From Candidatus Poribacteria bacterium (GTDB lineage Bacteria; Poribacteria; WGA-4E; JAJDTR01): a stretch of DNA of 64,000 nt. The DNA is taken from assembly GCA_965222225.1 (NCBI GenBank), contig CBDCTK010000002.1, forward strand, positions 3,456,001 through 3,520,000, in the 5' to 3' direction. Under the pieces are notes generated by a model that worked only from the letters and a program-made list of their open reading frames with translations, made no database searches and was not told the origin of the DNA. Shown here piece by piece: positions 343 to 54,540 of this stretch; positions within the stretch are counted from its first letter, which is position 1, and every line of letters begins with the position of its first letter. Both the position numbers and the translations under genes were made by a program.

Positions 343-512
343 GTAGGGATCAAACGAACGAATAGTGAGTGCGATAGCAATCTTTGATAACGAAGGATCA
401 AGGGATTGGATAATGACCGCGATAGAGTTCTCATAGAAAATTCCGTAGTGACTGCGATTGGAATCTTCCCCTCGTCCGTTACTCCATGCAGGTCGGCGAA
501 CCAAATCCCTAC
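343..512 (+). repeat. REP-like inverted pair carrying two 35-nt units and truncated units
   Basis: GTAGGGAT (343-350) pairs with ATCCCTAC (505-512); units at 351-385 and 399-433; partial units at 434-470. Confidence 0.75.
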
Positions 513-544
513 GGAACGGAACGCACTGTCAAATGTCAAAAAAC

Positions 545-1252
545 CTAGTTCTCGGGTGGGATATTTTGTGTGGCGTTTATGTGGATTGTGCGTCGACCTG
601 ATTTGGAACTCAACGCGGAGTGAAATAATTTGTGGTTCATAAAGAGCACATCGCCCGGCTCGTTTATCAAATCGTACCGGCCCGGAACTTCCTCAGCCGG
701 TGCTCCCAACGTTTCGATCGATTTGATGCTTCTCTGATCGGGATCCGTGCCTAATGCTTCTCGAAACTGTGTAAAGTGGCTTCCGGGAATCACGCTGAGA
801 CATCCCTCCTCGGGACCGAGCCGATCCAAATAAATCGCCGCGCGCATGGTGAAATAACCCTCTCTAGCCACATTGTCGTGATGCCATCCGCTCCCGCCGG
901 CATGAATCAGTCCTTCGGTCACGGTTACCCTGAAGTCATCACCCATCAAGTTTCTAAAGATAGAGACAATCCGCTCATCATCCAGTAACGGATAAAACAC
1001 GTCCGGGGCATAGTCGAAAAACGGGATATACGGCACTATGGTGTTGTTGACTTGCTGCCTAACCGCGGAATAACCACGGGCGTCTTGGTGAAGTTCTGGT
1101 TCCGTCGCCTCGTTGCGTGCGCTCTTCATCGCGGCGTCAAAGGCGTCGGAAAGCGCTTTCATCTCCTCGGCAGAAAACAACTGCTTGCACATAAGAAACC
1201 CGAACGTATGGAAATGAGTCACCCATTCCGCCATTACCTGTTTCTCTATCAC
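545..1252 (-). CDS. Phytanoyl-CoA dioxygenase (PhyH) family Fe(II)/2OG oxygenase
   Basis: HFHTFGFL N-terminus, WHHD, CLSVIPGSH, PGDVLFMNHKLFH motifs. Confidence 0.9.
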   Translation of the reverse strand: MIEKQVMAEWVTHFHTFGFLMCKQLFSAEEMKALSDAFDAAMKSARNEATEPELHQDARGYSAVRQQVNNTIVPYIPFFDYAPDVFYPLLDDERIVSIFRNLMGDDFRVTVTEGLIHAGGSGWHHDNVAREGYFTMRAAIYLDRLGPEEGCLSVIPGSHFTQFREALGTDPDQRSIKSIETLGAPAEEVPGRYDLINEPGDVLFMNHKLFHSALSSKSGRRTIHINATQNIPPEN

Positions 1253-1267
1253 GGCGAGTCCTCTATC

Positions 1268-1708
1268 CTACTCCTTCACCATCTTAGCTGCCGCCGGATC
1301 GAATCCGTCAGGAAACTGTGTTTGTGAGTTATAATGAACGCCTTCCAAGACTGCTTCATCGAGGTTGGCTTCCCGAAGATCGGCACCACACACAGTTGTT
1401 GGACGAGTATCTGCTCCCTCAAGATTCACTCGACTCAAAGAACGCCAGCGATAAACACCCTCGTTAAGATCGGCGGTACAAAGGTTTGCGTCGCGTAGAT
1501 TCGCCCCACGTAGATTAGCTCCGCGAAGGTCCGCGCCACGTAGATCAGTCCCTGACAAGTCCGCCCCTTGCAGATTCGATCGCGTCAGGAATATCCGATG
1601 CAGATTTGCGCTACTTAGATTTGTGCCATTGAGGTCCATCTCGGCGAGATAAACCCCACGGAGATCCGCTCCCGGTTCAATGACACATCCATTTACAGTT
1701 CGGCTCAT
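1268..1708 (-). CDS. Pentapeptide repeat protein
   Basis: Tandem A(D/N)Lxx repeats (GADLRGANLRGANLRDANL); C-terminal TQFPDGFDP. Confidence 0.92.
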   Translation of the reverse strand: MSRTVNGCVIEPGADLRGVYLAEMDLNGTNLSSANLHRIFLTRSNLQGADLSGTDLRGADLRGANLRGANLRDANLCTADLNEGVYRWRSLSRVNLEGADTRPTTVCGADLREANLDEAVLEGVHYNSQTQFPDGFDPAAAKMVKE

Positions 1709-1718
1709 CTCATATCTT

Positions 1719-2513
1719 CTAATTGGGACCCGAACTCCGTCTTTTAATGGCGCCCCAAGTGGTGGTTACTTTATCACGTGCGGAAACGGCAAGTAACGTC
1801 CCTATACCATTTTCCATAACCTCCCGGACTTCGTCTTCCGACAATGGTCGATTCCAGAAACCGATTTCGTCCAGAGCACCGTTGAACCATTCTGATCTGC
1901 CCTCCCAAGGCAGACGATTACCGAAGTGCATCGGCTTCCCGGTTACAGGAACTTCCCCTAGAATCTTGTTGCCAACTTCCTCGCCATCACGGTACACGAT
2001 ACTCGCTTCATTAGGCTCGTGCGACCATACAACATGATACCATTTCCCGAAGCTCCCGATCGGCTTCCCGTCGGAAAACCCCCAGGCACCTCCAATCCCC
2101 CAGTGGTGACGTTTGTCACCGAGTATATACCACTGAATTCTTGTGCCATCGCCGCCGGATTTATCCATGATTGCGCCGCCCTTCGTTGGCTTCATCCAGT
2201 GGGCAAGAGTGAAACCGTCCGGCAGATCATCAATATCCTTGGAATTCTTGACCGTTATAAGCGATTGTCCTCTGAGGTCGAACGCCTTTCCGACTTGTGC
2301 GTCATCAGTCCACACCCCGTTGTCCATCTCGATTTCGCCATGGTGTTTGCCAACCAAATCGCCCATGATGTCCCCGCGCCCCTCATCGAGTGGCCAATAC
2401 GCCACAAGACCGTCAAGGAGATTGGCGTGCACGCTTGCCTGAGTTACAAGCACGAATACAACCATGAGTAGCGCAAGATTGAATCGGTTCTTGACTGTTA
2501 CTCTCAACATCAT
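1719..2513 (-). CDS. Secreted LamG/concanavalin A-like domain protein with TWGxIK tail
   Basis: GAAGGAGGA RBS before ATG 2513; signal peptide; GLVAYWPLDEG...FNGALDEIGFWNRPLS; ends VSARDKVTTTWGAIKRR. Confidence 0.88.
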   Translation of the reverse strand: MMLRVTVKNRFNLALLMVVFVLVTQASVHANLLDGLVAYWPLDEGRGDIMGDLVGKHHGEIEMDNGVWTDDAQVGKAFDLRGQSLITVKNSKDIDDLPDGFTLAHWMKPTKGGAIMDKSGGDGTRIQWYILGDKRHHWGIGGAWGFSDGKPIGSFGKWYHVVWSHEPNEASIVYRDGEEVGNKILGEVPVTGKPMHFGNRLPWEGRSEWFNGALDEIGFWNRPLSEDEVREVMENGIGTLLAVSARDKVTTTWGAIKRRSSGPN

Positions 2514-2670
2514 CAATCCTCCTTCACAGCCTGAAACAGCCTGAATCGTTGAGTGTCCCAATCGGCAAGCCATTGAGCCTCCCGAATACATGGGGACCGG
2601 GAACACTGCGCACCTGGAATACAACTCGCAAACTTAGCGGGAATCAGTTTTACAAGTGAATCCGCCGACC

Positions 2671-3735
2671 TCATCGATTCGCGGGTAACTTCCGCCCCGA
2701 CTGTTTAATCTCTCCCCACGTTACCGTGCGCTTCGCCTTTGAAGACACCGAAAACGCAATCTTCGGATCAAACCACGATGGGTATGTATCAGACCCGGGA
2801 TCATTCGTCACATTTCTAGGGTTGCTGCCATCCGCGCCCATAATATAGATTTCGTTGTTTCTATCGCGATTTGTGGCAAAAGCAATCTCCTTGCCATTCG
2901 GAGACCACGTGGGGTGTCCGTCCCAGACAAAGATATTCTTGGTCAACTGCTTGGGGTTGCCGCCATCTCTATCCATGACGAAGATCTCGCTATCACCGTC
3001 TAGATCGGACTCAAACACTAACTTGTGGCCCAATGGCGGCTGCCATCCCGGCTTTTTCTCGTTCTTGGGAGTATTTGTAAGATTCTTTTTTTTGTCTCCC
3101 GTTCTGTCCATTACAAAGATGTCGTAATTTCCCGTTCGATTGCTCGACCACGCAATCCGTTTGCCATCGGGCGACCAGGATGGGCTTTCATCTTGCGCAG
3201 AGTGAAAAGTGACTCGAAAACTGGTTTCCTGATCGCCGTCTCCAAGGTCGGCAAACGGAAACGGATCAATATTCTTCTTCCTGTCCTCGACAATGCGGAC
3301 AACCCAAACATCAAAATTCCAGTTGTCGGCCCCGTGTGCGTGTACGACAGCAAGCCAATTCTCATTCGGCGACCATGAAGGCGTGAGATCCCGGTTGCCG
3401 GCTGTGACGACTCTAATGTTCTCTCCATCGTTGTCCATGATGTAGACTCTCTCGAAATGTGATTCCCGATCGGAAGCGAACAGGATTCTGGTTCCATCCC
3501 GAGACCACGAAGGCGATATATCCTGCTTGGCATGCTTCGTTATTCGCTGCACATTCTCCCCATCGGGGTTTATCGCAAAGATATCCTTATTCTTTTTTGC
3601 CTTTCTATCCGACACAAAAACAATGCGCGCAGTCTCCGGAGGCTCTACCGCAATTGCATTTACCACCACCAGTAGCATACTCATGAGAATGACGCCGCAT
3701 AGAACGACACATAGCCGCTTATCAATACGTTGCAT
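2671..3735 (-). CDS. Secreted TolB-like PD40 beta-propeller protein with TWGxIK tail
   Basis: Repeated PSWSPDG/EIFVMDRDG units; signal peptide; ends VSSKAKRTVTWGEIKQ. Confidence 0.9.
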   Translation of the reverse strand: MQRIDKRLCVVLCGVILMSMLLVVVNAIAVEPPETARIVFVSDRKAKKNKDIFAINPDGENVQRITKHAKQDISPSWSRDGTRILFASDRESHFERVYIMDNDGENIRVVTAGNRDLTPSWSPNENWLAVVHAHGADNWNFDVWVVRIVEDRKKNIDPFPFADLGDGDQETSFRVTFHSAQDESPSWSPDGKRIAWSSNRTGNYDIFVMDRTGDKKKNLTNTPKNEKKPGWQPPLGHKLVFESDLDGDSEIFVMDRDGGNPKQLTKNIFVWDGHPTWSPNGKEIAFATNRDRNNEIYIMGADGSNPRNVTNDPGSDTYPSWFDPKIAFSVSSKAKRTVTWGEIKQSGRKLPANR

Positions 3736-3868
3736 TTTGACGTCCTTTGCCGATCAATTGACCGTTAACTCGTAAAATCAAAACCTAATAACCAGTGAAA
3801 GTGAATAAGCGCACCACTAAAATTGCTTTATTCGGAAAAATCTAAAACTTCAACACGTCAATATAAAA

Positions 3869-3900
3869 GAAACCGAGTTTCTTCGAAGAAACTCGGTTTC
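3869..3900. repeat. Perfect 32-bp palindrome (REP-like or terminator-like)
   Basis: GAAACCGAGTTTCTTC-GAAGAAACTCGGTTTC between the two PD40 paralogs. Confidence 0.85.
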
Positions 3901-3991
3901 CTTATTCCTTGCACGGTCAAAATGGGCGGGCTATCGAGACGTATTCCGCCACTTTCTGGCAAAATCAAGTAGTCAAAAATTCAATCGCTCG

Positions 3992-5056
3992 TTATTTCTC
4001 CGCTCGTTTTCGCCCGGACTGCTTTATCTCGCCCCAAGTGACAGTGCGTTTGGTCTTGGGAGAAACCGAAAATGCAATCTTGGGATCGAACCAAGCAGGG
4101 CTCTGATCAGACGCAGCGTTATTCGTCAGATTAACGAGATTGTTGCCGTTGGCATCCATCACATAGATTTCATTGTTTCTGTCACGATTTGTAGCGAAGG
4201 CAATCTCTTTGCCATTCGGCGACCATGTGGCCTGACCATCCCACACGAAGACATTCTTGGTTAACTGTTTGACGTTCCCTCCATTCGCATCCATCACATA
4301 GATTTCACTATCCCCGTCTCGGTCGGACGCGAAAACAATCTTTTCTCCCAACGGCGGCTGCCAATCCGGCCCCTTCTCCCCTTTGGGATTATTCGTAAGA
4401 TTTTTCTTGTTGTCCCCATTTCTATCCATGACGAAAATATCGTAGTTGCCCGTCCGGTTACTTGACCATGCAATCTGTTGCCCGTCCGGCGACCAAGAAG
4501 GGCTTTCGTCTTGCGCCGAGTGCTTCGTAAGTCGAAGACTGTTGATCTCGTCGCCGTTGCCGAGTTCGCTGAATTTATACGCAGCCATCTTCTTCTTCTC
4601 ATCTTGCATGCGAACAATCCAGACATCAAAATTCCAATTGTCATTGACGTTCGCGTGAACACAAGCAATCCAATTCCCGTTCGGCGACCAAGATGGCGTC
4701 AAATCCCGCGTTCCATCCGTGATCGTGATGACGTCCTCCTCTCTATCAACGGCGCTAAGAACGCGGATATGCTCCCACGAATCGTCCCGAACGGCTGCCA
4801 TGGCGAACCGAGTGCCGTCCGGTGACCACGTAGGTGATATATCTGCTTTTGCATGGTCGGTTATTCTATCTACGTTACTCCCATCGGCGTCCATGACAAA
4901 GATATCTTTATTCTTTTTTACTTTTCGGTCTGACTCAAAAAGCATTCGTGCGACCTCCGGAGGCTCCTGGGCAGTCCCACTCGCTACGACGAGGAGCATA
5001 CCCATCAAGCAGACGCCAAGAAGATTCATGCTCAAACATTTCTTATACTCTTGCAT
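3992..5056 (-). CDS. Secreted TolB-like PD40 protein, tandem paralog of 2671-3735
   Basis: Same length (1065 nt) from ATG 5056, which follows AAGGGG; shared blocks HSAQDESPSWSPDG and NGKEIAFATNRDRNNEIY; ends VSPKTKRTVTWGEIKQ. Confidence 0.9.
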   Translation of the reverse strand: MQEYKKCLSMNLLGVCLMGMLLVVASGTAQEPPEVARMLFESDRKVKKNKDIFVMDADGSNVDRITDHAKADISPTWSPDGTRFAMAAVRDDSWEHIRVLSAVDREEDVITITDGTRDLTPSWSPNGNWIACVHANVNDNWNFDVWIVRMQDEKKKMAAYKFSELGNGDEINSLRLTKHSAQDESPSWSPDGQQIAWSSNRTGNYDIFVMDRNGDNKKNLTNNPKGEKGPDWQPPLGEKIVFASDRDGDSEIYVMDANGGNVKQLTKNVFVWDGQATWSPNGKEIAFATNRDRNNEIYVMDANGNNLVNLTNNAASDQSPAWFDPKIAFSVSPKTKRTVTWGEIKQSGRKRAEK

Positions 5057-5191
5057 GTTTTCCCCCTTTATATATTGCAGCCTACAAACCCGTGTGAAGT
5101 TCAGCGAACGTTCAATACTACGTTGTCCGGCCATCAAGGATGATGCCGATTGACACCAAATAGTCAAATTTATCTTAGGAGTTCCGTAAAC

Positions 5192-6064: not shown

Positions 6065-6101
6065 TTCACCTTTACTAATTCCAAGAAAACAGTGCTTTAT
6101 T

Positions 6102-6227
6102 TAACCTAAAGTTGCCACCTTTGTAGCACAAGGGATCTCTATCGCACTCGCTATTTGCTCGCTTGATCTGTTAGATTGTGCTTGTGATGCGCAAACTGAC
6201 AGTTTGCGCCAGTAGCAACTTGGGTTA
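6102..6227. mobile_element. MITE-like element with TA-bounded ACCCAAGTTGC-type inverted ends, containing REP hairpins and a 35-nt unit
   Basis: TAACCTAAAGTTGCCA ... TAGCAACTTGGGTTA; unit on the minus strand at 6131-6165; hairpin GCGCAAACTG-A-CAGTTTGCGC at 6189-6209. Confidence 0.65.
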
Positions 6228-6311
6228 ATTATGAAGAGAGAGTTAGGATGGGAAGGTGGAGGCATGGGAAAATAAGATACCCATTCTCCACACAATTGAA
6301 GGTGTTAAAAT

Positions 6312-11309: not shown

Positions 11310-11497
11310 TAACCCAAGTTGCTATCCATTCCTGTAGGTCGGGATCAAGCGACTGAAAAAGGAGCGCGATAGAAATCCCTTCTAGCCCGACCCGCAAATA
11401 TGCCATGGATTGGCAATTTACTCCAAGCAGTGATTGGCTCGATTCAACTCACATTCTCCCGGTATGCAACATTTTCTATAAGTAACAACTTGGGGTA
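11310..11497. mobile_element. MITE-like element with the same end family as 6102-6227
   Basis: TAACCCAAGTTGCTA ... TAACAACTTGGGGTA; contains GTAGGTCGGGAT[35-nt unit 11346-11380]TCTAGCCCGAC. Confidence 0.65.
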
Positions 11498-11560: not shown

Positions 11561-11641
11561 GTAGCAGCGATAAACTGAGCGAATAGATTGAGCGAGCGAA
11601 CGAATAATGAGGGCGATAGAGATTCCTCTCCGGATCGCGAC
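11561..11641 (+). repeat. GTAG-type REP interrupted by a 56-nt insert (partial plus full 35-nt unit)
   Basis: GTAGCAGCGAT[11572-11627]CTCCGGATCGCGAC compared with intact GTAGGAGCGATCTCCGAATCGCGAC at 19408 and 32933. Confidence 0.8.
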
Positions 11642-14137: not shown

Positions 14138-14181
14138 ACGCGCACCTAGCCCGAAACAGAACTTCTGCGGTTGAACCCCCG

Positions 14182-14239
14182 GTAGGAGCGATCTCCGAAT
14201 CGATCAACCGAACGAATAGTGAGGGCGATAGCTTTTCTC
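14182..14239 (+). repeat. GTAG-type REP joined to a 35-nt unit
   Basis: GTAGGAGCGATCTCCGAATCGAT followed by CAACCGAACGAATAGTGAGGGCGATAGC (unit 14205-14239). Confidence 0.8.
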
Positions 14240-14363: not shown

Positions 14364-15749
14364 ATGATAGACACAACCTATCTCCTCAACGACAAACAGA
14401 TGCGGGATTTCATCGTTAACGGGTATGTGATTGTCAAGACGGATCTGCCACGGGATTTTCACGATGAGATTTACAAAGCCACAAACACAGTGTTTGAAAA
14501 GGAGGGCAATCCGGGCAACAACCTTTTGCCTCGCATTCCCGAAATTCAGCGTGTGCTCGAAGACCAGACCGTCCGTGGCGCGTTGACGAGTCTCTTAGGC
14601 GCGGATTACTATATGCAGCCCCATCGCCACCCCCATATTAACCCGCCAAAAAGCAAGGGGCAAAACCTGCATCAGGATGGCGGCAAACGCTGGTCGCATC
14701 GGACGCGTCGTTTGCTGGTCTTCTACTATCCACAGGACACGCCGGAAGAGTTGGGCCCCACCAGTATTGTTCCGGGGAGCCACTACTATTGTACCCCTGA
14801 AGGCGGTAAGATTCGGGGCGAAGTTCCACTTTCCGGAGAATCCGGCACCGTGACCATCGCGAACTACGACCTTTGGCATAGGGCTATGCCCAATCGAACC
14901 GACATGCCTCGCTACATGATGAAATTCCTTTCCGCCCGCATGTCGGAACCCGATTCACCTTCATGGAATACTGACCAGCCGGACTGGATGAGCGACACAC
15001 CAATTGGCAACCCCGAGCATCAGACATTGTTCAAGCATGTTTGGGATTGGCACCACGGCAAAACTACTTCAAATACTGAAGCCAACGGTGCTCCCGGTGA
15101 CGCGATAATAAGCAAACTGATAGCAACGCTGTACGATGGCGGCGAGTCGGTATGCCTCCGCGCTGCATATCAACTAGCCGCATTCGGCGTGCTAGCTATT
15201 CCCGACTTGGTAGCGCTGTTGGAGGAAGAATCAGAAGTCGTCCGTCGAAATGTGTGCTATGCCTTGAGTGCCATCGGTGCGCCCGCCGTCGCCCCCCTGA
15301 TTCACGCCCTGGAAGCTAAGAATTGGTGGACCAGTGATAGCGCGGCGGAAGTGCTGGGAGATATGGGACTTGATGCGCAGGAAGCCGTGCCGGCGCTGAT
15401 GCGTGCGGTGCGAGACGAATCGGATGCTGTCCGCTCTCATGCTGCGGAGGCATTGGGAACAACAGGGCAATTATCCGCCGCCGCTGTCCCGGCGCTGATT
15501 ACCGCACTGCAGGATGCGGAAGGATCCGTCCGTCGCAACGCGGTGTTCGCGTTGGCTCAGCTGGGACCGCACGCTAGGGATGCCGTACACGCACTACAGA
15601 ATGTCCTCTTCGACGAAAACCGATATGTGCGTGGAGACGCTGTGAACGCGCTTCATCGTATTGGCACAAAGGAGGCGTCGGATGTGTTGCTTCGCTATCT
15701 AACCATGTTCCGCTGGTGCCCGTTGACCACCCGAGAGAGTACGCATTAA
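14364..15749 (+). CDS. PhyH-family dioxygenase fused to HEAT repeats
   Basis: LHQD, IVPGSH and DLWHRA in the N-terminal half; repeated AVPAL..AL.D....VR..AA.ALG in the C-terminal half. Confidence 0.9.
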   Translation: MIDTTYLLNDKQMRDFIVNGYVIVKTDLPRDFHDEIYKATNTVFEKEGNPGNNLLPRIPEIQRVLEDQTVRGALTSLLGADYYMQPHRHPHINPPKSKGQNLHQDGGKRWSHRTRRLLVFYYPQDTPEELGPTSIVPGSHYYCTPEGGKIRGEVPLSGESGTVTIANYDLWHRAMPNRTDMPRYMMKFLSARMSEPDSPSWNTDQPDWMSDTPIGNPEHQTLFKHVWDWHHGKTTSNTEANGAPGDAIISKLIATLYDGGESVCLRAAYQLAAFGVLAIPDLVALLEEESEVVRRNVCYALSAIGAPAVAPLIHALEAKNWWTSDSAAEVLGDMGLDAQEAVPALMRAVRDESDAVRSHAAEALGTTGQLSAAAVPALITALQDAEGSVRRNAVFALAQLGPHARDAVHALQNVLFDENRYVRGDAVNALHRIGTKEASDVLLRYLTMFRWCPLTTRESTH

Positions 15750-15875
15750 AAAATAACGGAATTAGTAGCTTGTAGCTTTTAGACTGACGACAAACATAAA
15801 ACTTGGTACCCTGTCGTAAATCTTTTCGTCACACGTAGATGTCCATAGTGACTATTCTTCTCGTAGGAGTTTGCT

Positions 15876-16730
15876 ATGGACATTTTGAATCTTATGAAAG
15901 AGTTTCCAAATCAAGAATCTTGTCTCAGATTTATAGAGGAAAAACGTTGGAAGGACGGTGTTTGCTGTATCCACTGTGGCAGTGAAAAAGTTGGACGCAA
16001 GAACAAAAACGACATTACTACTGGTTGGAATTGCTACGATTGTGAATCTAGCTTTTCGGCTACAGCAGGAACCATCTTCCATGGTACCAAGATACCTCTC
16101 CAGAAATGGTTTTTGGCTATCTCAATTCTTTCCAATGCCAAGAAAAGCATATCGAGTTGTCAGCTTGCTCGTGACTTGGACATGAATCAAAAGTCCGCTT
16201 GGTATATGGCAATGCGCCTCCGTGAGAAAATGAGTGATAGTGATGAATTGCTGAAAGGGATAGTTGAAGCGGACGAAACCTATGTCGGCGGCAAACCCAG
16301 AGCAAAATCTAAGAGAGGTAGAGGCACAAATAAATCTCCCGTCATCGGCGTAGTCGAGAGAGGCGGTCGGGTGGTTGCTAAATTCATGAAGGTTCTATCT
16401 GGTGAAAATATCAGAGAATTCATCCTTAGCAATGTCTCACCCGATGAGTCTATTCTTATGACTGATGAATTTCGCTCTTACAATAGTCTGGACGAAGATA
16501 TCGAAAGACATGTTATCCATCACCAAGAGAGATATGTTTCTGAGGACGGCGTAACTCACACCAACACCATCGAGTCGTTTTGGGCTTGTGTCAAGAGGTC
16601 ATTCTACGGAACGCATCATCACTACAGCAAGAAGTGGCTGCCACTGTATATCATGGAGTCTTGCTGGAAATATAATCGCAGAAAAGATGATGAGATTTTC
16701 ATAAGATTTTTTGATGAATGCTTCACCTGA
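15876..16730 (+). mobile_element. IS1595-family (ISXO2-like) transposase
   Basis: Zn ribbon CIHC...CYDC; TAGTIFHGTK.PL.KW; catalytic EADETYVGG, LMTDE, HTNTIESFW; AT-rich relative to neighbours. Confidence 0.92.
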
Positions 16731-17150
16731 GCCACATGAATTGTTTGGCTATCGGTATATTCTGTCAACGACAACATCATGGTGTGCTGAAAATCCCATA
16801 GTGTTGGAAATTAAAATCCCGCAGATAACCCGCAATGCTCCCGCGAGCATGTACAAACGCTTGGTCAACATGATATGCCTCCATTTCTCTCTTATAGAGA
16901 TGTATTTTAGTGTGAATCAAGATTCCGAACACTGTCTAAAATGATTGTACATTAAGAAGAGAAAAGCAAGCAAATCGACCAAAAAGCAGTTAACTACTAA
17001 GTCCCAAAAATAATCATCTGATTTAAAGCAAACTTCGGGAACAAATTTTATGTTCTGACACGGCTCACGGCGCTCCGATTCTCCTGCCGCTCCTGCTAGA
17101 TTAACAAATCCAGCAGATATTGAGTTCGAGTCTCCCGCTCCAGAGTAAAT

Positions 17151-17185
17151 CAAACGACTGGACAGGGAGTGCGATAGAGATCCCC
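17151..17185 (+). repeat. 35-nt dispersed unit
   Basis: CAAACGACTGGACAGGGAGTGCGATAGAGATCCCC. Confidence 0.75.
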
Positions 17186-19337: not shown

Positions 19338-19372
19338 CAAGCGAGTGGATAACGAGCGCGATAGAGATCCCT
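19338..19372 (+). repeat. 35-nt dispersed unit inside a degenerate GAAACCGA...TCGGTTTC palindrome
   Basis: GAT|CAAGCGAGTGGATAACGAGCGCGATAGAGATCCCT|T. Confidence 0.8.
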
Positions 19373-19407
19373 TCTTTCTTCAGAGCTCGGTTTCTTCCGC
19401 AATCACT

Positions 19408-19432
19408 GTAGGAGCGATCTCCGAATCGCGAC
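19408..19432 (+). repeat. Intact GTAG-type REP
   Basis: GTAGGAGCGATCTCCGAATCGCGAC, identical to 32933-32957. Confidence 0.85.
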
Positions 19433-19726: not shown

Positions 19727-22088
19727 AAAAATCTGTGAATTACTAAAGTCATCCGAAGGGAATTTAGGCGCGTTGGACAAACTGAAGCAAGTCCAAAATC
19801 GTCTCGGCGCAGATGAGCTGATGCCAATCGCCAAATGCAACGTGCTTGCCGCCGGGCTGTCGCGCCTGCCAGTTTGCCCCTCAGATGAGATAGCGACATG
19901 GCTTTTTGAACTTGCTTGGATATCCGAGGATATCAACGCAGAAGAGGTTCGCGCGGTCATCAATACGGATCGCAACGTAGCCGGTTTCCCAAGGGCAAAC
20001 CTACCACATATAGAAGCGGAAATCCAGAATCTCCGAGACTATTATCGACAGGTCATGACATCGGCCCTGGGTAATCTATCCGTTGATGAACGCGCCGAAG
20101 CACTGAACCGGGTAGTCGAACCAGCAACTGACGACGAGAAGCCAACACCTCGCTTGATTGATCGCTTGGTTGACTGGTATGAAGTAGATGCCAACGCATA
20201 TCTTGAGGAGCATGAAACCAAAATCCGGGAATTAGACGAGAAACTCCGATTGGCGGCTGATGAGAAGCATCCGGATTCAGCTCTTGCCGCGTTGATAAAT
20301 CAACTCACTGATGCCATCAACAACTGGCATGCCGTTGCACACCCAATACAGATTAGCAAGAAAATCAAAGGGTTACCTGATGAAGATAGCACGCGTGTAG
20401 CGTGGCGCGTGCGAGACTTGGCAATCCATCTCTTCCATGATTATAGCAAGTTAAGTTTCTGTCAGCAACTTATAGTGATACTCCAAGCGGTGTTCGCAGA
20501 GGTTGTCGAAATTTCTGAAGTTCTTGCTAAGCACACAAGGGAATTAGAGAAAATCACTGGGGTGCGTACGCCGAAAGCACCTAATTCAACCGTTGGGAGG
20601 CGTGAATTGCGCGCGCGCCGAGATATCGAAATACGGGTCCGAAAACTGCGGAAGCTGCTTACCGCCGCGGATTCAGACATGGATTTCATTTTGGCTCTGG
20701 AGAATGGGTTACTCATTCAGTCTGTCAAAAAATGGAAAAACTTGACACAACCAATTACGGCATCGAATGCAGATTGTCGTCATGTCGCAAATCTTGTGAG
20801 AGAATTGGCGCTTTTTCTTTGGAAGGAACACGGTGAACTTGGTGTTTCTCTCCAGCTTCTAAAGATGCTCCAAGAGGAGTTTGCAAGAGTGCGCGAAATT
20901 GCCGCTATTATTGCCGGGGACCTAAAGGCACTAGAAGCGTCAAAGCGTGCGCGCATACAGGTTCAGATTCAGGTTCAGGCTGAGAAACTGCGCGCCGCCG
21001 CTGATGCGAAACAACCCGACTCCGTCTTGAGTGAGATGGTTAACCATCTTATTCAGGCGGTCAATGAATGGGAAACTTTAACACAACCATTTGAGTCATA
21101 CCGCGCAGATTATTATAGCGTGGCAAATCTTGCGATAGAATTGGCGCTCTACCTTTGGCGCGAATGCGGCAAGCTTGATTGTTCGCGCCAACTCCTAAAA
21201 ATGCTCCAGAAAGTATTTGCAGACGTTCATGAAATCGCGACTCTTATATCTGGGGACATAAAGGCGTTAGAATCGCCAGAACGCGCACGTCTAGATGTTA
21301 AAGTCCAGGCTGAGAAACTGCGTGCCGCCGCTGATTCGAAACAACCCGACCCCGTCTTGAGTGAGATGGTTAACCAACTCATTCAGGCGGTCAATGAATG
21401 GAAAGCGTTGGCTCAACCGATTAAAGCGTATTCTGCAGATTATTATCATGTGGCGTATCTCGTGCAGGAATTGGCACGTCATCTTCTGGAGGAACACGGA
21501 AAGCTTGATAATTCTCGTCTTCTCTTTAAGATGCTGCAACAAGAATTTGCGGAGGTTGACCAAATCGCGGCTCTCGTGGCTGAGCACCTAGATGCGCTAG
21601 AGGCTGTAGAGAGTGCATGTCGACATATTGAAATACAAGTCAAGGGACTGCGCGACATCGTTTATGCGAAACACTACCATCCCGATTTGAGTCCGATGGT
21701 AAACCAACTCATTCAGTCTGTCAAAGGATGGAGAGAACTGGCGCAACCGATTAAGGCATATTGTGGAGATTATTGCAGTGTGGCGAAGCTTGTCTTGGAA
21801 TTGGCGGTAAACCTTCGGAACAAAGGAAAACTCCGTTCTTCTCGTCAACTCACCGAGATGCTGCAGGATATATTCGGAGAAATCCCCGAAATTGCCACTC
21901 TTCTTGCTGAGGACGCCAAAACACGAGATGAGACTGTCAAGAAGCACGCACCCCGAGTCGCTAAGGAGCGGTCACGCCGGATTGGAGCTGCGATGGGTCG
22001 CTATGAGCTTACCGACCGGTCCACGCTAATCGTTGCGGTTATAGTAATTGGCACAGTGGCAGGTTTGACGTTAATGGAATTGTTCTAA
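19692..22088 (+). CDS. Large helical repeat protein with a C-terminal TM anchor; 5' end probably lost
   Basis: Open frame 19569-22088 overlaps the GrpE-like gene; five ~110-aa repeats; C-terminal LIVAVIVIGTVAGLTLM. Confidence 0.65.
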   Translation, partial: AWLPLKNSEQAEKICELLKSSEGNLGALDKLKQVQNRLGADELMPIAKCNVLAAGLSRLPVCPSDEIATWLFELAWISEDINAEEVRAVINTDRNVAGFPRANLPHIEAEIQNLRDYYRQVMTSALGNLSVDERAEALNRVVEPATDDEKPTPRLIDRLVDWYEVDANAYLEEHETKIRELDEKLRLAADEKHPDSALAALINQLTDAINNWHAVAHPIQISKKIKGLPDEDSTRVAWRVRDLAIHLFHDYSKLSFCQQLIVILQAVFAEVVEISEVLAKHTRELEKITGVRTPKAPNSTVGRRELRARRDIEIRVRKLRKLLTAADSDMDFILALENGLLIQSVKKWKNLTQPITASNADCRHVANLVRELALFLWKEHGELGVSLQLLKMLQEEFARVREIAAIIAGDLKALEASKRARIQVQIQVQAEKLRAAADAKQPDSVLSEMVNHLIQAVNEWETLTQPFESYRADYYSVANLAIELALYLWRECGKLDCSRQLLKMLQKVFADVHEIATLISGDIKALESPERARLDVKVQAEKLRAAADSKQPDPVLSEMVNQLIQAVNEWKALAQPIKAYSADYYHVAYLVQELARHLLEEHGKLDNSRLLFKMLQQEFAEVDQIAALVAEHLDALEAVESACRHIEIQVKGLRDIVYAKHYHPDLSPMVNQLIQSVKGWRELAQPIKAYCGDYCSVAKLVLELAVNLRNKGKLRSSRQLTEMLQDIFGEIPEIATLLAEDAKTRDETVKKHAPRVAKERSRRIGAAMGRYELTDRSTLIVAVIVIGTVAGLTLMELF

Positions 22089-32864: not shown

Positions 32865-32932
32865 CGTGGCTACCTGACCTTATTTCCTCGTCATATCGGA
32901 AATTTGGAATTCCCTCATACCAACGATATACG

Positions 32933-32957
32933 GTAGGAGCGATCTCCGAATCGCGAC
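32933..32957 (+). repeat. Intact GTAG-type REP
   Basis: Identical to 19408-19432. Confidence 0.85.
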
Positions 32958-37769: not shown

Positions 37770-37856
37770 CAATCGACCGAATAGGGAGCACGATAGAAAT
37801 CCCATAGTGACTGCGATAGAGTTCCCATAGAGATCCTAGGGCGATAGAAAATCCTT
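37770..37856 (+). repeat. 35-nt unit followed by three 5'-truncated copies
   Basis: 37770-37804 full unit; TAGTGACTGCGATAGAGTTCCCA; TAGAGATCCT; AGGGCGATAGAAAATCCTT. Confidence 0.8.
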
Positions 37857-46490: not shown

Positions 46491-46509
46491 TGTCTATCTC
46501 CTTAGCTAC

Positions 46510-48731: not shown

Positions 48732-48876
48732 CGGAGGTTGGTCAAGCGCTAATTCACAAGCGTTCGGCGGGAAATCCTTTTTGATTGGATCGCTCCTCGC
48801 TTTCTGGTATAATGATGTTGATACTCATGTCACTACAACGAAGGCAGCTAACATCTTCATCCGAAGGTTCTCGATT

Positions 48877-49860
48877 ATGGATTTGGAAGATCGGGCAGGA
48901 CAGTTCCGTGATAATTTTTCCCGCGTAAAAGCGGAAGTGCATAAACGGATTACTGGACAAGACGAGGTTATTGAAGGGGTGCTGTTGTGTCTGCTAGCCA
49001 ACGGACATGTGTTGCTTGAAGGAGTTCCCGGCTTGGGGAAGACACAACTCGTTCATACCTTGAGTGAAGCGCTCAATGTGTCGTTCAGACGGATTCAATT
49101 TACGCCGGACATGATGCCCTCAGACATTACCGGCACAATGCTTCTTGTGGAGGATGCGCAGGGACGAAAGCAGTTTGAATTTCAGCGGGGACCAATCTTT
49201 TCGCAGATTGTGCTTGCCGATGAAATCAATCGTGCGACTCCGCGCACCCAATCCGCATTGCTTGAAGCAATGCAGGAACATACCGTAAGCGTGGCTCAAA
49301 CAAGCCACACGCTGGATGAACCCTTCTGCGTCCTTGCAACTCAAAATCCGTTGGAAATGGAGGGTACGTATCCTTTGCCGGAGGCCCAACTCGATCGATT
49401 TCTTTTCAAACTCCACGTGAATTTTCCGGATGAAGATCAAATTCTTGAAATCTTGAGGCGTACAACGTCAGACAGGGAAATTTCCATCGAAGCAATCATT
49501 GATGCCGAGACGATCAATTGGATGCGCCAGTTGGTGCGCCGCGTCCCAATTGCCGAGCACGTCGAACGCTATATCATTCGTCTCGTCTGTCTGACACACC
49601 CCGATCGTTCAGACGCTCCAGAAATGGTAAAACGCTACGTCGAATTGGGTGCAAGTATTCGCGGTGTACAGGCGATTGCGTTGACCGCCAAAATCAAGGC
49701 ACTGCTCGATGAACGTTATAACGTCGCATTTGACGACATTCGCGCTGTCGCGCTGCCGGCACTACGTCATCGCATTCTTTTAAATTTTGAGGGTGAGGGC
49801 GAAGAGATAAAGACTGATGAGATTATTAATCATGTGTTGAAAACGTTGTCAGAAGCATAA
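48877..49860 (+). CDS. MoxR-family AAA+ ATPase
   Basis: GVPGLGKT, RIQFTPD, LADEINR, ATQNPLEMEGTYPLPEAQLDRF. Confidence 0.95.
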   Translation: MDLEDRAGQFRDNFSRVKAEVHKRITGQDEVIEGVLLCLLANGHVLLEGVPGLGKTQLVHTLSEALNVSFRRIQFTPDMMPSDITGTMLLVEDAQGRKQFEFQRGPIFSQIVLADEINRATPRTQSALLEAMQEHTVSVAQTSHTLDEPFCVLATQNPLEMEGTYPLPEAQLDRFLFKLHVNFPDEDQILEILRRTTSDREISIEAIIDAETINWMRQLVRRVPIAEHVERYIIRLVCLTHPDRSDAPEMVKRYVELGASIRGVQAIALTAKIKALLDERYNVAFDDIRAVALPALRHRILLNFEGEGEEIKTDEIINHVLKTLSEA

Positions 49861-50010
49861 TCACTGTCATTCGTAAAAAAACAGTGCGAGATACAGTCTG
49901 CCTTTGATTTCCAGAGTTCAAAATGCGTAAATTCTAACTCCTTTAGAAGTAGAATGCTCCTTTGCTAGTAAAGATAGGACATAGCGGAGAGGCGAAAAGA
50001 CTGTGCATCG

Positions 50011-51336
50011 TCATCTCGAGGAGCGCGGTAGACCATCTTCCATTTCGTTCAGGCTATCCAGTAACACATCCATCTCAAGTCGCAAGTTTTGCAACTCCTT
50101 GGAAACACCGTCGCTCTCAAAACTGGCGTTGCCAACTTCGGTGGTTTTTATTCGTACAATCATGGCAAGCGCATTATCCAAGGAAATACGAATTGTGGTT
50201 AATTGTGCTCGAATCTTCGCTGCCAAGTTTGTCAAGTGCTCATGATTGGCAAGTCTTTCCTTGAGAGCCTTCAATGCCTCCTCATATTGTAATGCGACCC
50301 CCGCGTTGTTTGCAGTTGTCAGTCTCCCTTCAATTTCGTCCTTCTCGCGATAGAGATTTTGCGCGCTGGAGGTCTGTAGATACTCCTCGATTTGTTGCAA
50401 GCGATCAATTAGGTCTGCCGCTTTCGAGACCACGCCCCCAATGTACTCAATCAAGGATTCTAGCGGCGGTTTAACCCCTTCGTTGGCAGAATCAATCGCC
50501 TCGAAAATCCTATCTCGAAGTTCCCGTATCTGTGAAATCAGTCGAATGTACTGTGCTTTGAGCATGGAAGAATATTGGTTTCCGGGCTTCGCTACATCCC
50601 CTAGCAGAACTTCCTCGGGTTTGAAGATTTCACGATAGGCAATCACTTGTGCGCAGATTGCAAGTGGAAGGGTAATGAATATACCAATGCCAAATGCAAC
50701 GATGCCAATGCAGGCAAGGAACGTCAAAACCAGTCCAAATAGCCAAAACCGCCACCAATTTTTCCATGTCAAAACGGTTTGGAATGCCGTGGACACAGCC
50801 GAAAAAACACTCATCTCTTGGTCAATTAACAGTGGAAATGCCAACATTGCTATTGCGCAAAGAAGCGGAACAACAAAAACACCAACCCCGGTTGAAAATA
50901 AAATAAACATGCCAGTCGGGAAGATGATCCACAAGAACAATCCTCCCCAAAATCGCTCGAACCCTTTGAAGATGTCACGAATGCGCGGCTTTCCGCCGCG
51001 CATTGACTTAAGTCCCATAAAGCATAATCCGGCATAAAGTGGTCCAAACAAAACCATTAACAGCGGTATACAAATCATTGCAACTGGGGCGAAAATCCAC
51101 GGGTACCCCGGGCCATCAAAACTACCCGACCACACAAACGCATCCGAGCGGTACATCCACAATCGGGGTCCCACAACACCAACTATGATTATCGACAGGG
51201 GTGTACAGATTATCGTGCCTAAGAAACTGGCGAAGAAGAAGGTGAAGCGGTACTGTTTATGTATTTTCCTACCCTCGGTGAGCCACTTCTCAATAGCTAC
51301 CGTTGGTTGAATTTTTGATGAGTTCCCCATGTCCAA
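50011..51336 (-). CDS. Multi-pass membrane protein with a C-terminal coiled coil
   Basis: GPLYAGL...DIFKGF...LLIDQEMS membrane domain followed by about 170 aa of heptad-like helix. Confidence 0.75.
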   Translation of the reverse strand: MDMGNSSKIQPTVAIEKWLTEGRKIHKQYRFTFFFASFLGTIICTPLSIIIVGVVGPRLWMYRSDAFVWSGSFDGPGYPWIFAPVAMICIPLLMVLFGPLYAGLCFMGLKSMRGGKPRIRDIFKGFERFWGGLFLWIIFPTGMFILFSTGVGVFVVPLLCAIAMLAFPLLIDQEMSVFSAVSTAFQTVLTWKNWWRFWLFGLVLTFLACIGIVAFGIGIFITLPLAICAQVIAYREIFKPEEVLLGDVAKPGNQYSSMLKAQYIRLISQIRELRDRIFEAIDSANEGVKPPLESLIEYIGGVVSKAADLIDRLQQIEEYLQTSSAQNLYREKDEIEGRLTTANNAGVALQYEEALKALKERLANHEHLTNLAAKIRAQLTTIRISLDNALAMIVRIKTTEVGNASFESDGVSKELQNLRLEMDVLLDSLNEMEDGLPRSSR

Positions 51337-51843
51337 TTTCTCCTAAATGGTGGCAGCGCTTAATTGATATACTGCAAGGAATTCGCCATTTAGAGAATTG
51401 CACGAATCTCAATTTGCTCTTTGGTGTAGTATCCACAATAATCACAAAAGAATTTGTACGCTTATAGTACCGTGTTCGGAGAGGCGTCTCCGCCTCAATC
51501 ATCTAGTTAGTCAATCCTGACAAATGGGAAGGGTGAAGTGGCAAGAAATATGAGGTGCGTTCAAAAAATGGCATTATGTGTATTCCATAATTGTACAGCA
51601 TTGTGTTTGTCCTGTAAAGTCGATTGCTCAATTCCATGCATGTCAGAAGCCTAGTCATCAAGGAACACACTACAAAAGATAGGGACAAAGCACGAGGCAT
51701 AATCAAGTAACGATGCATTATTCGCCGAGATATTTGTTTGATTGTATCTTTTACGATGTGTTAAAATTTTTCGCTATCGGCATTGACAATCACGGTTTTT
51801 TCGTTAAACTCCACGTGTACCTTTAATTGGAGTTTCTACCTGA

Positions 51844-54105
51844 ATGAAATCCATGGAAAAGCGCTTAATTCATCAAATTGCAATCGCCCTATTCATGCTA
51901 CCGCTATATCTTCCTCCTAGTTTTTCTCAGCAATCAACCCCTATTGATGCCGGGATTCTAGGAACAATACTTCATCAAAGAACTAAACAACCCATAGCGG
52001 GGGCAGTGGTTCTCTTGGCCGAATATGAGGAACGTACCACATTAGCTGACGCTAGTGGAAAATTTCAATTCAATAACCTTCCAGCCGGTGAATATAAGAT
52101 TCTCGTATCTGCGGCAGGTTATTACGCCACTGAGGCGCCTGTTGTTACCGTGGAAGCAGGGCAAATCACCCAAGTGCTGGTGTATCTTGAAAAGGTCGAA
52201 TTCCTATTTGACGAAGTTCTTGTTACGACAGAGCGTTTCCCAACTACGGTCAGTCGGCAGAGCATGAAGGCGCTGGAGATTAAGCGCATCCCCGGCACAG
52301 CTGGCGACGCTCTACGCGCTTTGCCGGCACTACCGTCTATCAGTGTCGCTAACGATTTTAACGGGGCATTGTACATCCGCGGTGGCGCCCCTGAAGACAA
52401 TGTATTCTACTTTGACCGTTCGCCCATTGGATACCCGTATCACTTCGGTGGTCTCGTCTCAACGCTGAGTTCCGAGGTAATTGAACGAATCGACGTATAC
52501 GCTGGTGGGTTCGGTGCAGAGTTTGGGGCAGATGCTCAAGCCATAATCGACATCTATTCACGAGGAGGCAACGAGCAGAAGGTCGGCGGAAAACTCAATT
52601 TGAACCTACTTTACTCAGAGGGATTACTAGAAGGACCAATCGGTGAGAAAGGTTCTTGGTATTTCGGTGGGAGGCGGAGCTATGTGGACTTACTCCCTAT
52701 TGAGGTGGATCTGATAACCGCTTTTCCGCGTTTTTGGGATTATCAATTTAAAGCCACGTACGATTTGCACGCGAAGCACATGGTAACCGTAAACGCGTTT
52801 GCCGCCGACGATTTTATGGAACTCAAATTAGGGTTGGATGATGTCAGCGGCGATCCGACCCTAGCGGGTAGGTTCCTTTTTGAGAACGGTTTCGATGGAC
52901 AGGGGATTCACCTGCGATCACTGTTTACAGATCGGCTGATATCTTATCTGTCACTTACGCGTTCCTTCAACCACTTCAATCTCAATTTCGGCGAAGGGTT
53001 GTTCTTGAGGATCGGAGTCTCGAATTATCAATTGCGGCAAGATTTAAGTTTTCGTTTAACGTCCAATCATCGGCTGGAATCCGGACTGTTGCTCGCGACA
53101 GCACCAACGACCGGTGCCGCCTTTTTTCCACGCAGGCCGGATGAAGGAGATCCGGATTTCGATTTCGCATTCGAGGAAAAAATCCGGGGTGATTTCGGAC
53201 TACGTTACAACCGAATTGAAACATATCTGCAACATCGATATCGTCCCTTCCCGTTTTTATCAATTGCCGCAGGTTTTCGGATCGACTACCTAAACTTGAC
53301 CGACGAAATCTCGCTCGGGCCAAGAGCCAGTTTGAAGTTCCGAATTCCAAGCGGCTCCGAAGTTCGCCTCGCTTACGGTAGGTACGAACAAAGCCCACAG
53401 CCACCTCTAAACTTTCCCGACTTTGGCAATCCCAATGTAAAATCAAGCGAAGCAAGCCATTACATCATGGAGTTAGATCGGCAGCTTTCGTCACAGACTG
53501 GATTCAAGGTCGCCGGTTACTACAGAGATTTGAATAATCTCGTTACGAGCGATAGCGAAGAAATCTACCTTAATCAGGGAGATGGCATGGCGCGGGGGTT
53601 AGAACTGTTCCTTCGCCATAACGCAGGCACCAGATTTTTTGGCTGGGCGAGTTACGCTTATGTACGCTCCGAACGTCGCGATCGTCCCGGTGACCCTTGG
53701 CGTTTGTATTCGTTCGATCAGACGCACGTCACAACACTCACGGGAAGTTATAAACTCACGCCGACGTGGGAGATTGGCGCCAAATGGCAATATTCTACAG
53801 GGAATCCGTATACCCCCGTGATTGACGCAACGCTCGAGCGACATCCGACAACCGGACTACCCATCTATCGTCCCATTTACGGAGACATTAATTCCAAGAG
53901 AGTACCGCCATTTCATCGCTTAGACATCCGTGTCAACAAATCGTTTACGTTCAATCGCTGGGAGATGGGGATATACTTGGAACTCCTAAATGCGTACAAT
54001 CGCAAGAACGTGCTCACGGTTGATTATAATTACGACTACACAGAGCAGGATGTGGTTAATCAGCTTCCTTTGATTCCCTATTTGGGGGTAACCGCTGAAT
54101 TCTGA
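51844..54105 (+). CDS. TonB-dependent receptor with an N-terminal carboxypeptidase-regulatory-like domain
   Basis: Plug motifs LYIRGG, IERIDVYAGGFGAEFG; C-terminal RLDIRV...LNAYN...GVTAEF. Confidence 0.92.
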   Translation: MKSMEKRLIHQIAIALFMLPLYLPPSFSQQSTPIDAGILGTILHQRTKQPIAGAVVLLAEYEERTTLADASGKFQFNNLPAGEYKILVSAAGYYATEAPVVTVEAGQITQVLVYLEKVEFLFDEVLVTTERFPTTVSRQSMKALEIKRIPGTAGDALRALPALPSISVANDFNGALYIRGGAPEDNVFYFDRSPIGYPYHFGGLVSTLSSEVIERIDVYAGGFGAEFGADAQAIIDIYSRGGNEQKVGGKLNLNLLYSEGLLEGPIGEKGSWYFGGRRSYVDLLPIEVDLITAFPRFWDYQFKATYDLHAKHMVTVNAFAADDFMELKLGLDDVSGDPTLAGRFLFENGFDGQGIHLRSLFTDRLISYLSLTRSFNHFNLNFGEGLFLRIGVSNYQLRQDLSFRLTSNHRLESGLLLATAPTTGAAFFPRRPDEGDPDFDFAFEEKIRGDFGLRYNRIETYLQHRYRPFPFLSIAAGFRIDYLNLTDEISLGPRASLKFRIPSGSEVRLAYGRYEQSPQPPLNFPDFGNPNVKSSEASHYIMELDRQLSSQTGFKVAGYYRDLNNLVTSDSEEIYLNQGDGMARGLELFLRHNAGTRFFGWASYAYVRSERRDRPGDPWRLYSFDQTHVTTLTGSYKLTPTWEIGAKWQYSTGNPYTPVIDATLERHPTTGLPIYRPIYGDINSKRVPPFHRLDIRVNKSFTFNRWEMGIYLELLNAYNRKNVLTVDYNYDYTEQDVVNQLPLIPYLGVTAEF

Positions 54106-54346
54106 CACAGGATTTCGATGACACCCCCGCATTAAGTTTTGCTAGAACCGGGCATGTGCGCAACTGTCGCCAAATTGATTTGGGGTTGTAGCCTGCGGAC
54201 GTAATGGGGTGCGGGTGTAGGTCAGCGCGAAGATAGGACGCCGAAGTTAATTCTCCACGACAGAGGTCTTTTGCCGCCGCTGACCACAAGCATCTTAAAC
54301 CCAGCCGAATCAGATTTCCAGTGGTGGAGATGGCTGAATAGCCTTA

Positions 54347-54540
54347 GAGCCTGTTTGAATAATCGGTGGCAAAGCAAGTTTTGGTCATTTGTAAAAAGTT
54401 TCTCATGTTTTCATTGTTGGCTGCTACATACCTGTAGGATGTCTATCGCAGTCGCTATTCGCTCCCTTGATCCCACTCTGGGGCTTTTAGAGGCGGGTGC
54501 GCAGTGCGCACCCTACAAACTGTACTTTTCAAACAGGTTC
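54347..54540. mobile_element. MITE-like element with IS5-type ends and a TTA duplication, containing a REP hairpin and a 35-nt unit
   Basis: TTA|GAGCCTGTTTGAA...TTCAAACAGGTTC|TTA; unit on the minus strand at 54435-54469; GGGTGCGCA-G-TGCGCACCCTAC. Confidence 0.7.

Follow-up and report, generated by a model that had tools for sequence, protein, structure and literature searches.

What kind of element is a 35-nt repeat that occurs ten times in a single 64-kb stretch of a Candidatus Poribacteria genome, and how does it reach the sites at which it sits? The stretch, here called the window, is 64,000 nt long (C2:3456001-3520000) and belongs to a genome, designated G000, of 5.70 Mb with 49.8% G+C in two contigs, of which C2 carries the window. 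A first-pass annotation had listed ten units, usually placed after GAT, and had described them as lacking terminal inverted repeats, a hairpin and a target duplication. It had suggested that each unit was written by extension of a 3' end on a template, for example by a reverse transcriptase (RT) with an RNA template encoded elsewhere. We found that the unit is a discrete, strand-specific hairpin element of 35-36 nt, which enters DNA 3' of GA without duplication and has done so repeatedly and independently. With a probability of about one half, it is a minimal non-autonomous mobile element of single-stranded DNA (ssDNA), of the kind represented by repetitive extragenic palindromes (REPs) or IS200, and is moved in trans by a Y1 transposase of the HUH class.

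The element was searched for with the gap-free core pattern CAA-NN-GA-NN-GRAYA-NN-GA-NN-GCGAT (CAANNGANNGRAYANNGANNGCGAT), allowing at most two mismatches. The window contained exactly ten matches, compared with 0.07 on average and at most 1 in 100 dinucleotide shuffles, and all ten units of the first-pass annotation were recovered at their coordinates and on their strands. Placement directly after GAT held for seven of the ten; the other three followed AAT (17151), GAG (11593) and ACA (37770). The profile search of the genome that the annotation had proposed found 1179 copies at E < 0.01, forming 774 clusters, and the core pattern found 1109 modules, 633 of them distinct. Both a GAT preference and a near-fixed unit length were seen at this scale. 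GAT directly preceded 941 of the 1109 modules, AG directly followed 94% of them, and the tail after AG was (A/G)(A/G)ATCCC. A tail could be recognised in 669 copies, in which the unit measured 35 nt (437 copies), 36 nt (227) or 37 nt (5). The insert is best delimited as starting at the T of GAT and ending with ATCCC, and the frame first given to the ~35-nt unit was correct to within one base. The layout of the element is T-CAA, hairpin, GCGAT-AG-(A/G)(A/G)ATCCC, and in its target context it reads (C/G)GA^TCAA-hairpin-GCGATAGAGATCCC^N, where ^ marks the junctions. Its 5' foot is an invariant TCAA, and the GTAG or GT[AG]G tag of REPs is absent from the unit. Most modules (943 of 1109, 85%) lay outside crude gene calls that cover 82% of the genome, and their orientation relative to co-directional neighbour genes was almost even (340 same, 290 opposite).

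The distribution of the element was examined in 176 genomes of the phylum with an exact 30-nt pattern. Per genome, the pattern occurred 330-860 times in the genus (10/10 genomes) and 114-137 times in a second genus (4/4 genomes), which belongs to another family. Two further genomes had 14 and 4 matches, four genomes had one or two, and 156 of the 176 had none. A reversed control pattern gave 0 matches in all 176 genomes. The element is abundant in 2 of the 31 genera of the phylum.

The earlier statement that the unit has no hairpin proved to be wrong: four covarying base pairs surround an invariant tandem GA/GA core. The hairpin is composed of 2 bp, a tandem G-A/A-G mismatch, another 2 bp and a 5-nt loop, G(A/G)A(T/C)A. 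Standard pairs were present at the four positions in 1031, 1023, 1044 and 1060 of the 1109 modules (92-96%), whereas column frequencies predict 579, 586, 548 and 874 (50-79%). Mutual information was 0.73, 0.91, 1.10 and 0.40 bit for the four partner pairs and at most 0.20 bit for other pairs of variable columns. In the window, all four pairs were found in seven of the ten copies, and 36 of 40 pairs were standard. The outer pair was G-T in 263 modules and A-C in 12, and the inner pair was T-G in 157 and C-A in 24; the commonness of G-T and the rarity of A-C indicate that pairing occurs on one strand only, as ssDNA or RNA. RNAalifold, run on 300 of the 1045 distinct flanked copies, gave ((..((.....))..)) for the top strand and no structure for the complement. 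The opposed GA dinucleotides form 5'-GA/3'-AG, most often in the context C-GA-G on either side, which is the classical context of tandem sheared G-A pairs. Pairing was retained across 633 distinct stem variants and the two helices assorted near-independently, indicating that copies beget copies, not that one master template wrote them all. Since the copies diversify while the stem stays paired, the copies themselves are the source of further copies. The invariant bases (GA core, loop and GCGATAG) were conserved between two genera.

The manner of entry was read from five host repeat families, REP-A to REP-E, of which this one genome contains empty as well as filled copies. REP-C (GTAGGAG-[CGAT]-CTCC) has a four-letter loop in 94 copies, which is CGAT itself in 78, and the filled form, found in 4 copies, has CGAT plus exactly 35 nt, each time with a different stem set. 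REP-D (GGGAATAA-[CGATCG-type]-TTATTCCC) was empty in 22 copies and carried an additional 35 nt in 4 scan hits, which represent 2 insertions read on both strands of the palindrome. REP-E, which hosts the window copy at 6131-6165, was empty 12 times elsewhere in the genome and filled once. REP-B was empty in 78 copies and filled in 14, nearly always with the same module, indicating that the composite was copied as a whole. REP-A was empty in 19 copies and filled in 36, and its filled form is not a clean indel. In REP-C, REP-D and REP-E the insert can be written in two ways, either as TCAA...ATCCC after GA or as CAA...ATCCCT after GAT.

Insertions of the element into itself decide this register. 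A truncated copy preceded 240 of the 1109 modules, at offsets of 10, 12, 17-19, 23, 25 and 36-38, so that the inner copy stood after the first GA, the loop GA, the second GA or the G of GCGAT, or followed head-to-tail. In 54 cases, excision of the inner copy restored a perfect host, pairs included. The unambiguous nested cases comprised 17 in which the insert began with TCAA after a host GA and 7 in which it began with ATCAA after a host G, and the insert is accordingly taken to start with T after host GA. At the left junction the sequence is GAT in every case, regardless of whether G, GA or GAT comes from the host. Of the 669 copies whose tail could be recognised, 86% had C or G before GA. 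Mutual information between the left flank and the tail was ~0, indicating that the left flank is the target and not part of the element. An outer stem of GGGAT and ATCCC was considered as a terminal inverted repeat and rejected, as flank and tail do not covary. The element thus has no terminal inverted repeats that covary, and it makes no target duplication, since empty and filled pairs differ by the insert alone with a positional ambiguity of at most 1-2 nt. Both of these hallmarks of miniature transposable elements with inverted repeats (MITEs) are absent, and we agree with the earlier view that the unit is neither a DDE-type MITE nor a clustered regularly interspaced short palindromic repeat. 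The landing sites are the apical parts of several classical REP hairpins, every GA of the element itself and unique intergenic DNA.

These junctions bear directly on the suggested 3'-end extension. In such a process a nicked 3' end in G, GA or GAT would align on a short RNA or DNA template and be extended to the fixed boundary ..ATCCC, much as happens with telomerase or in target-primed reverse transcription, and the far end would be rejoined with small losses. The register at the left junction, always GAT with the host supplying G (7 clean cases) or GA (17), fits this idea, as do the non-clean classes, which miss 1-2 host bases on the right side only, the lack of a target duplication, and the frequent G-T pairs, which are those of an RNA fold. 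The part of the suggestion that called for an RT and a master template encoded elsewhere was not supported. The only RVT_1 match in the genome was a defence RT of the AbiA type (L006, G000:C2:4499563-4501572, 254.8 bits to the PADLOC AbiA model). This RT was found in 5/9 other genomes of the genus, in 1/4 genomes of the second genus rich in the element and in one genome that lacks it, and so the co-occurrence of repeat and RT across genomes, a check that had been recommended, showed that the RT does not follow the element. Several of its copies contain stop codons, which are internal in the orthologues of 4 of the 5 other genus genomes that have the gene. A search of the genome for a primase-polymerase found none, and no Rfam family matched in the window. 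Moreover, 633 pairing-preserving variants with near-independent helices are at odds with one master template, and the near-random orientation to flanking genes also speaks against templated extension, which we consider very unlikely.

A further possibility is that no dedicated enzyme is involved. Replication template switching, slippage or gene conversion could in principle act through the GA, GAT and ATAG microhomologies within the unit, and this is consistent with junction microhomology of varying length, with internal ATAG motifs at an 11-12-nt period, with 23-nt tandem partial units, and with the heavy clustering itself, since neighbours within 500 nt were head-to-tail on the same strand in 390 pairs and inverted in 104. 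A microhomology of 1-3 nt, however, cannot yield repeated exact 35-nt inserts with different stems at the same position of REP-C or REP-D, and it leaves unexplained the 81 of 1109 copies in which both flanks are unique. Slippage would give mostly identical tandems, whereas adjacent units differ by compensatory changes and are therefore not simple duplications. An origin without a dedicated enzyme appears unlikely.

The densest element arrays, with up to 10 head-to-tail units, were found in a ~50-kb region (G000:C2:1527000-1580000), which also contains a truncated gene (1545570-1545977) for a REP-associated tyrosine transposase (RAYT). Along the chromosome, element density varied ~fivefold between twentieths.

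About a quarter of the copies lie just inside GTAG-tagged classical REPs. In ~290 of the 1109 copies, GTAG precedes the junction by 6-11, 13 or 18 nt, where 2.8 are expected per position, and this GTAG belongs to the host REP. In another reading, the unit would be mainly a passenger or apical module of classical REPs, kept for a host use, such as a protein-binding DNA or RNA structure, and spread chiefly by the REP's own RAYT. The 14 filled REP-B copies contain nearly one module, which is also the commonest in the genome (50 copies), indicating that the composite was amplified whole. The REPs that bracket Y1 genes are themselves filled, at least one flank recurs in the genome in 1028 of the 1109 copies, and the conservation of the GA core, loop and GCGATAG between two genera would agree with a kept function. 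The bare 35-nt unit has nevertheless been inserted cleanly and independently into five host families and into itself, it shows no orientation preference relative to genes, and most genomes that share these REPs and RAYTs do not have the element. Pairing of the flanks across the insert was slightly above controls, with a host-flank stem of at least 6 in 10% of 669 copies compared with 5.7% with shuffled partners. A passenger role is, on balance, improbable. The idea that copies are usually placed in host hairpin loops was set aside as weakly supported, flank pairing being only mildly enriched.

Individual sites were compared with other genomes and with public sequencing runs. The copy at 14205, near polA, was missing from 5 of 6 other genomes of the genus that were compared, and the copies of the sixth, G005, lie at different positions; the borders at this site could not be fixed because the intergenic DNA is too diverged (the coding DNA is about 82-87% identical). 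The uninterrupted form of the repeat that hosts copy 4 is present in G005. Four of 24 listed public runs were compared. Contigs of three of them skip exactly 6131-6165 (joint 6130>6166), with sides of 21-22 letters and 3x the local depth. The short sides and the 3x depth led us to reject this skip as an allele of the site and to read it as other, empty host copies. RNA-library contigs cover parts of the window, which is no proof of transcription.

The genome contains five Y1_Tnp Pfam matches and a sixth fragment. Y1a, a protein of 157 aa (L001, G000:C2:3080255-3080728; orthologues L014-L022), scored 65.8 bits against the NCBI IS200 model (cut-off 55), and its closest solved structures are the transposases of ISDra2 (best match) and IS608. 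It carries the Y---Q--HH signature of subclass 1.2, a subclass to which Quentin et al. ascribe this signature, a low copy number and the lack of IS200 ends (available text of PMC6006769). Its orthologues in three genera were all bracketed by REP-A, a 23-nt hairpin repeat (AAGCCCCAGMGGGGCGACAGGTG), which is forward upstream and inverted downstream. In the genus this REP-A is often filled with the element, although the orthologous REP-A of G002 is empty. An enzyme class described as lacking ends like those of an insertion sequence (IS) would have a DNA partner in REP-A. Y1a could not be assigned as the cognate enzyme of the element itself, as it is bracketed in all genera by REP-A and is present in element-free genera.

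The gene of the Y1c type is a pseudogene in this genome, with an in-frame TAG (L003 1357-1914, G000:C2:3088793-3089350), and its relatives are bracketed by REP-C. This REP strongly resembles Pseudomonas-type REPs, and the bracketed genes in related genomes are RAYTs of the Y1c type. A third RAYT family is bracketed by REP-B, with the element ~100-150 nt off on both sides in the same arrangement in G015, G009 and G000; the gene is intact in G015, G002 and G003. Y1b, Y1d, the Y1c type and the REP-B-linked RAYTs could likewise not be assigned as cognate enzymes, since none fits the distribution of the element; the Y1c type occurs in 6/9 and 2/4 genomes of the element-rich genera and is widespread elsewhere. 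In the RAYT-like gene L004 the N- and C-terminal parts lie in different frames, and several Y1 genes of the genome look decayed. No TnpB was found in a search of the genome, and a search for Y2 transposases was uninformative either way, giving no signal in any of 14 control genomes. Among 76 bracketed genes, no transposase gene was bracketed IS-like by same-strand copies; 8 of them, sampled from recurrent families, were ordinary metabolic enzymes, one DDE transposase and one gene without a Pfam family.

In the reading that we favour, the element would move as ssDNA, being cleaved and rejoined by a Y1 HUH transposase that acts in trans; the candidate enzymes are one of the resident RAYTs or the IS200-like enzyme of subclass 1.2. 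Recognition would rest on the hairpin and its GA bulge, and the adjoining TCAA and GCGATAG may act as guide or cleavage determinants, as in the IS200/IS605 and REP-RAYT systems. Y1 HUH chemistry fits because the element has no inverted ends, makes no duplication, leaves its target outside itself, and has a mismatched hairpin and conserved bases at its foot.

A number of observations weigh against this mechanism. Five Y1 families were searched and none matches the distribution of the element. Y1a is present in 9/9 other genomes of the genus and 2/4 of the second genus, yet also in 7/7 and 6/10 genomes of two element-free genera. Y1b was found in 3/9 other genomes of the genus. Y1d-like genes were found in 7/9 at E <= 1e-10, with close matches (at least 69% identity) in 4 genomes of three genera, and the REP-B-linked RAYT was found in 7/10 (own genome included) and 2/4, plus element-free genomes. 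Wherever a copy adjoins a Y1 gene, it is contained in the REP that belongs to that gene (A, B or C), and 76 ordinary genes are bracketed by copies too; the bracketing of Y1 genes by the element may be indirect. The element has no GTAG tag and one hairpin instead of two ends. Its junction register is variable (TCAA after GA, ATCAA after G), and filled REP-A and the most frequent nested class lack 1-2 host bases and are thus not clean indels; HUH cleavage at a fixed site would not lead one to expect this. The loss is on the right side only in REP-A, at nested offsets 17 and 23 and at the window copy at 14205. In nearest-neighbour DNA folding the hairpin had no extra stability, with a mean of -2.42 kcal/mol compared with -2.63 kcal/mol for shuffled sequences. 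Nearest-neighbour parameters give no credit to sheared G-A pairs in DNA, and it is covariation, not energy, that establishes the hairpin. Finally, the nearest genomes (~85% identical) gave no unique site with orthologous empty and filled forms, and metagenome contigs break at repeats. As a separate observation, the cumulative GC skew of C2 is weak and irregular, without a clear two-replichore shape that would allow the replichores to be placed.

The element copies and host repeats of the window are listed in the table. The partial copy has the shape of the right-hand remainder of a copy that was split by an insertion into its loop, and self-insertion accounts for such 5'-truncated pieces in general.

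Table. Copies of the element and REP-C host repeats in the window (positions counted from the first letter of the window).
Feature	Position	Strand	Structure and context
Element copy 1	351-385	+	All four stem pairs intact; GTAG (ctgtagGGAT) 7 nt upstream
Element copy 2	399-433	+	After a fragment of another copy (..GATAACGAAGGAT); 3/4 pairs intact; partial repeat next, at 438-458
Element copy 3	6131-6165	-	Clean 35-nt insert in GTAG-tagged palindromic REP-E (about 6122-6190)
Element copy 4	11346-11380	+	11 nt downstream of GTAG; loop region of host hairpin GTAGGTCGGG...CCCGACC
Element copy 5	11593-11627	+	Degenerate, CGA start; 2/4 pairs intact; after a truncated copy, before a REP-C-like arm
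Element copy 6	14205-14239	+	Within REP-C repeat downstream of polA; tail degenerate
Element copy 7	17151-17185	+	AAT precedes
Element copy 8	19338-19372	+	Nearest to consensus; every pair intact
Element copy 9	37770-37804	+	ACA precedes; 3/4 pairs intact
Partial copy	37804-37837	+	3' half from loop ATAG, plus tail; profile from genome copies
Element copy 10	54435-54469	-	Inside REP-A repeat (AAGCCCCAGAG, element, CAGGT)
REP-C host repeat	14179-14206		Classical, GTAG-tagged
REP-C host repeat	19405-19432	+	Classical, GTAG-tagged; empty
REP-C host repeat	32930-32957		Classical, GTAG-tagged

The window also contains an IS of the IS1595 family (15749-17005) with a 284-aa ISXO2-like transposase (15876-16730), and this IS has at least 30 copies in the genome at 99-100% identity. 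In three public runs, contigs connect 15748 with 17006 and share 8 letters at the joint, indicating that related strains lack this IS1595 copy and that its insertion duplicated 8 bp of target. Two open reading frames (ORFs) contain coding tandem repeats, with units of ~330 nt (20632-21820) in an 839-aa ORF and of 126 nt (54997-55415) in an 805-aa ORF, the latter units putatively of the WD40 type, judging from WD-like words. Proteins encoded in the window carry domains of the Planctomycetes-Verrucomicrobia-Chlamydiae type (PSCyt2, PSD1 and DUF1501).

The spread of REP-type repeats has been called poorly understood (available text of PMC8266576). REP cleavage has been shown in vitro and natural integration junctions are scarce, whereas the present element supplies many exact ones in one genome. 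The material comprises a 35-36-nt unit, a GA target, five hosts in both empty and filled form and at least 24 unambiguous self-insertions, and ~630 natural variants expose what is essential in the hairpin, namely two sequence-flexible 2-bp helices, an invariant tandem GA core, the loop and the flanks. The question of mechanism can be reduced to a bench test with short oligonucleotides and a few candidate Y1 enzymes. Elements far under 100 nt can act as discrete transposable units outside cyanobacteria, and the element accounts for the breaks of assemblies of these genomes at such sites. A bolder claim, which we hold to be doubtful, is that this is the smallest site-specific mobile DNA defined at base resolution, a parasite of REPs and of itself that either hijacks RAYTs or spreads by register-aligned templated addition to 3' ends. 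If RAYTs are hijacked, hundreds of natural donor-target junctions would give the missing integration rule for RAYT-type enzymes; if 3' ends are extended on a template, this would be a new way to make dispersed repeats.

A literature search, in which supplements were not covered, found no such repeats described in Poribacteria, and the element was compared with systems known from other bacteria. For a repeat templated by an RT, such as a retron, a diversity-generating retroelement or a telomerase-like system, no co-occurring RT with an adjacent template RNA was found. The class 3 TnpA-Y1 systems of Planctomycetes, Acidobacteria and Proteobacteria are described, in the available text of PMC6006769, as having atypical structures with a CnGA foot, ~600 hairpins in one genome, and Y1 enzymes intermediate between IS200 and RAYT. 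By this text description, to which the comparison is confined, the element is like them in its high-copy atypical hairpins and GA-containing foot motif; it differs in that an enzyme with the YV..EQ motif was not recognised among the Y1 genes seen here.

The element resembles REPs and their RAYTs in being a short (20-40 nt), high-copy, intergenic and lineage-specific repeat, in forming a single-strand hairpin with an internal mismatch and conserved single-stranded bases at its foot, and in residing with single-copy Y1 genes bracketed by repeats. The REPs of E. coli require a two-mismatch bulge (available text of PMC8266576). The element differs in that its foot is TCAA and the unit contains no GTAG, that its pairs are mainly head-to-tail and are not the inverted doublets known as REPINs or bacterial interspersed mosaic elements, and that no cognate RAYT was assigned among the five Y1 families searched. 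It also inserts into classical REPs and into itself, base-exact 3' of GA, and no junctions of this exactness were found described for REPs in the available portions of PMC8266576, PMC6006769 and PMC3116915.

The model of IS200/IS605 transposition involves no inverted ends or duplication, a target outside the element, a mismatched hairpin and guide bases (available portions of PMC8266576 and PMC6006769). The element likewise has neither terminal inverted repeats nor a target duplication, is strand-specific, contains an imperfect hairpin as its putative recognition structure, and inserts directly 3' of a short sequence that stays outside it. In contrast to these elements, it has one hairpin in 35-36 nt where they have distinct left and right ends, the analysis found no autonomous parent sharing its ends and the TnpB search was negative, its target is 2-3 nt only (GA, with C or G before it in 86%), and its register is variable. 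In its behaviour the element comes closest to REPs and to miniature elements of the IS200 type, yet it fails defining features of both.

Another comparison is with the small dispersed repeats (SDRs) of the Nostocaceae, reportedly mobile repeats of about 21-27 nt that also insert within other repeats, described by Elhai et al. in 2008 (Genome Res 18:1484). SDRs and the present element are both very small mobile repeats without a known enzyme, as far as the available portions of the citing papers PMC5861425 and PMC3116915 describe the former. SDR5 may insert at HIP1 (GCGATCGC), according to the same portion of PMC5861425, and such insertion resembles the CGA^TCG-type sites of the element at the centre of REP-D and in the loop of REP-C. 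SDRs differ in belonging to another phylum, the present element is longer (35-36 nt), and its sequence is apparently unrelated to that of SDRs, which are known here by description only. By analogy, SDRs are the nearest conceptual precedent for the element.

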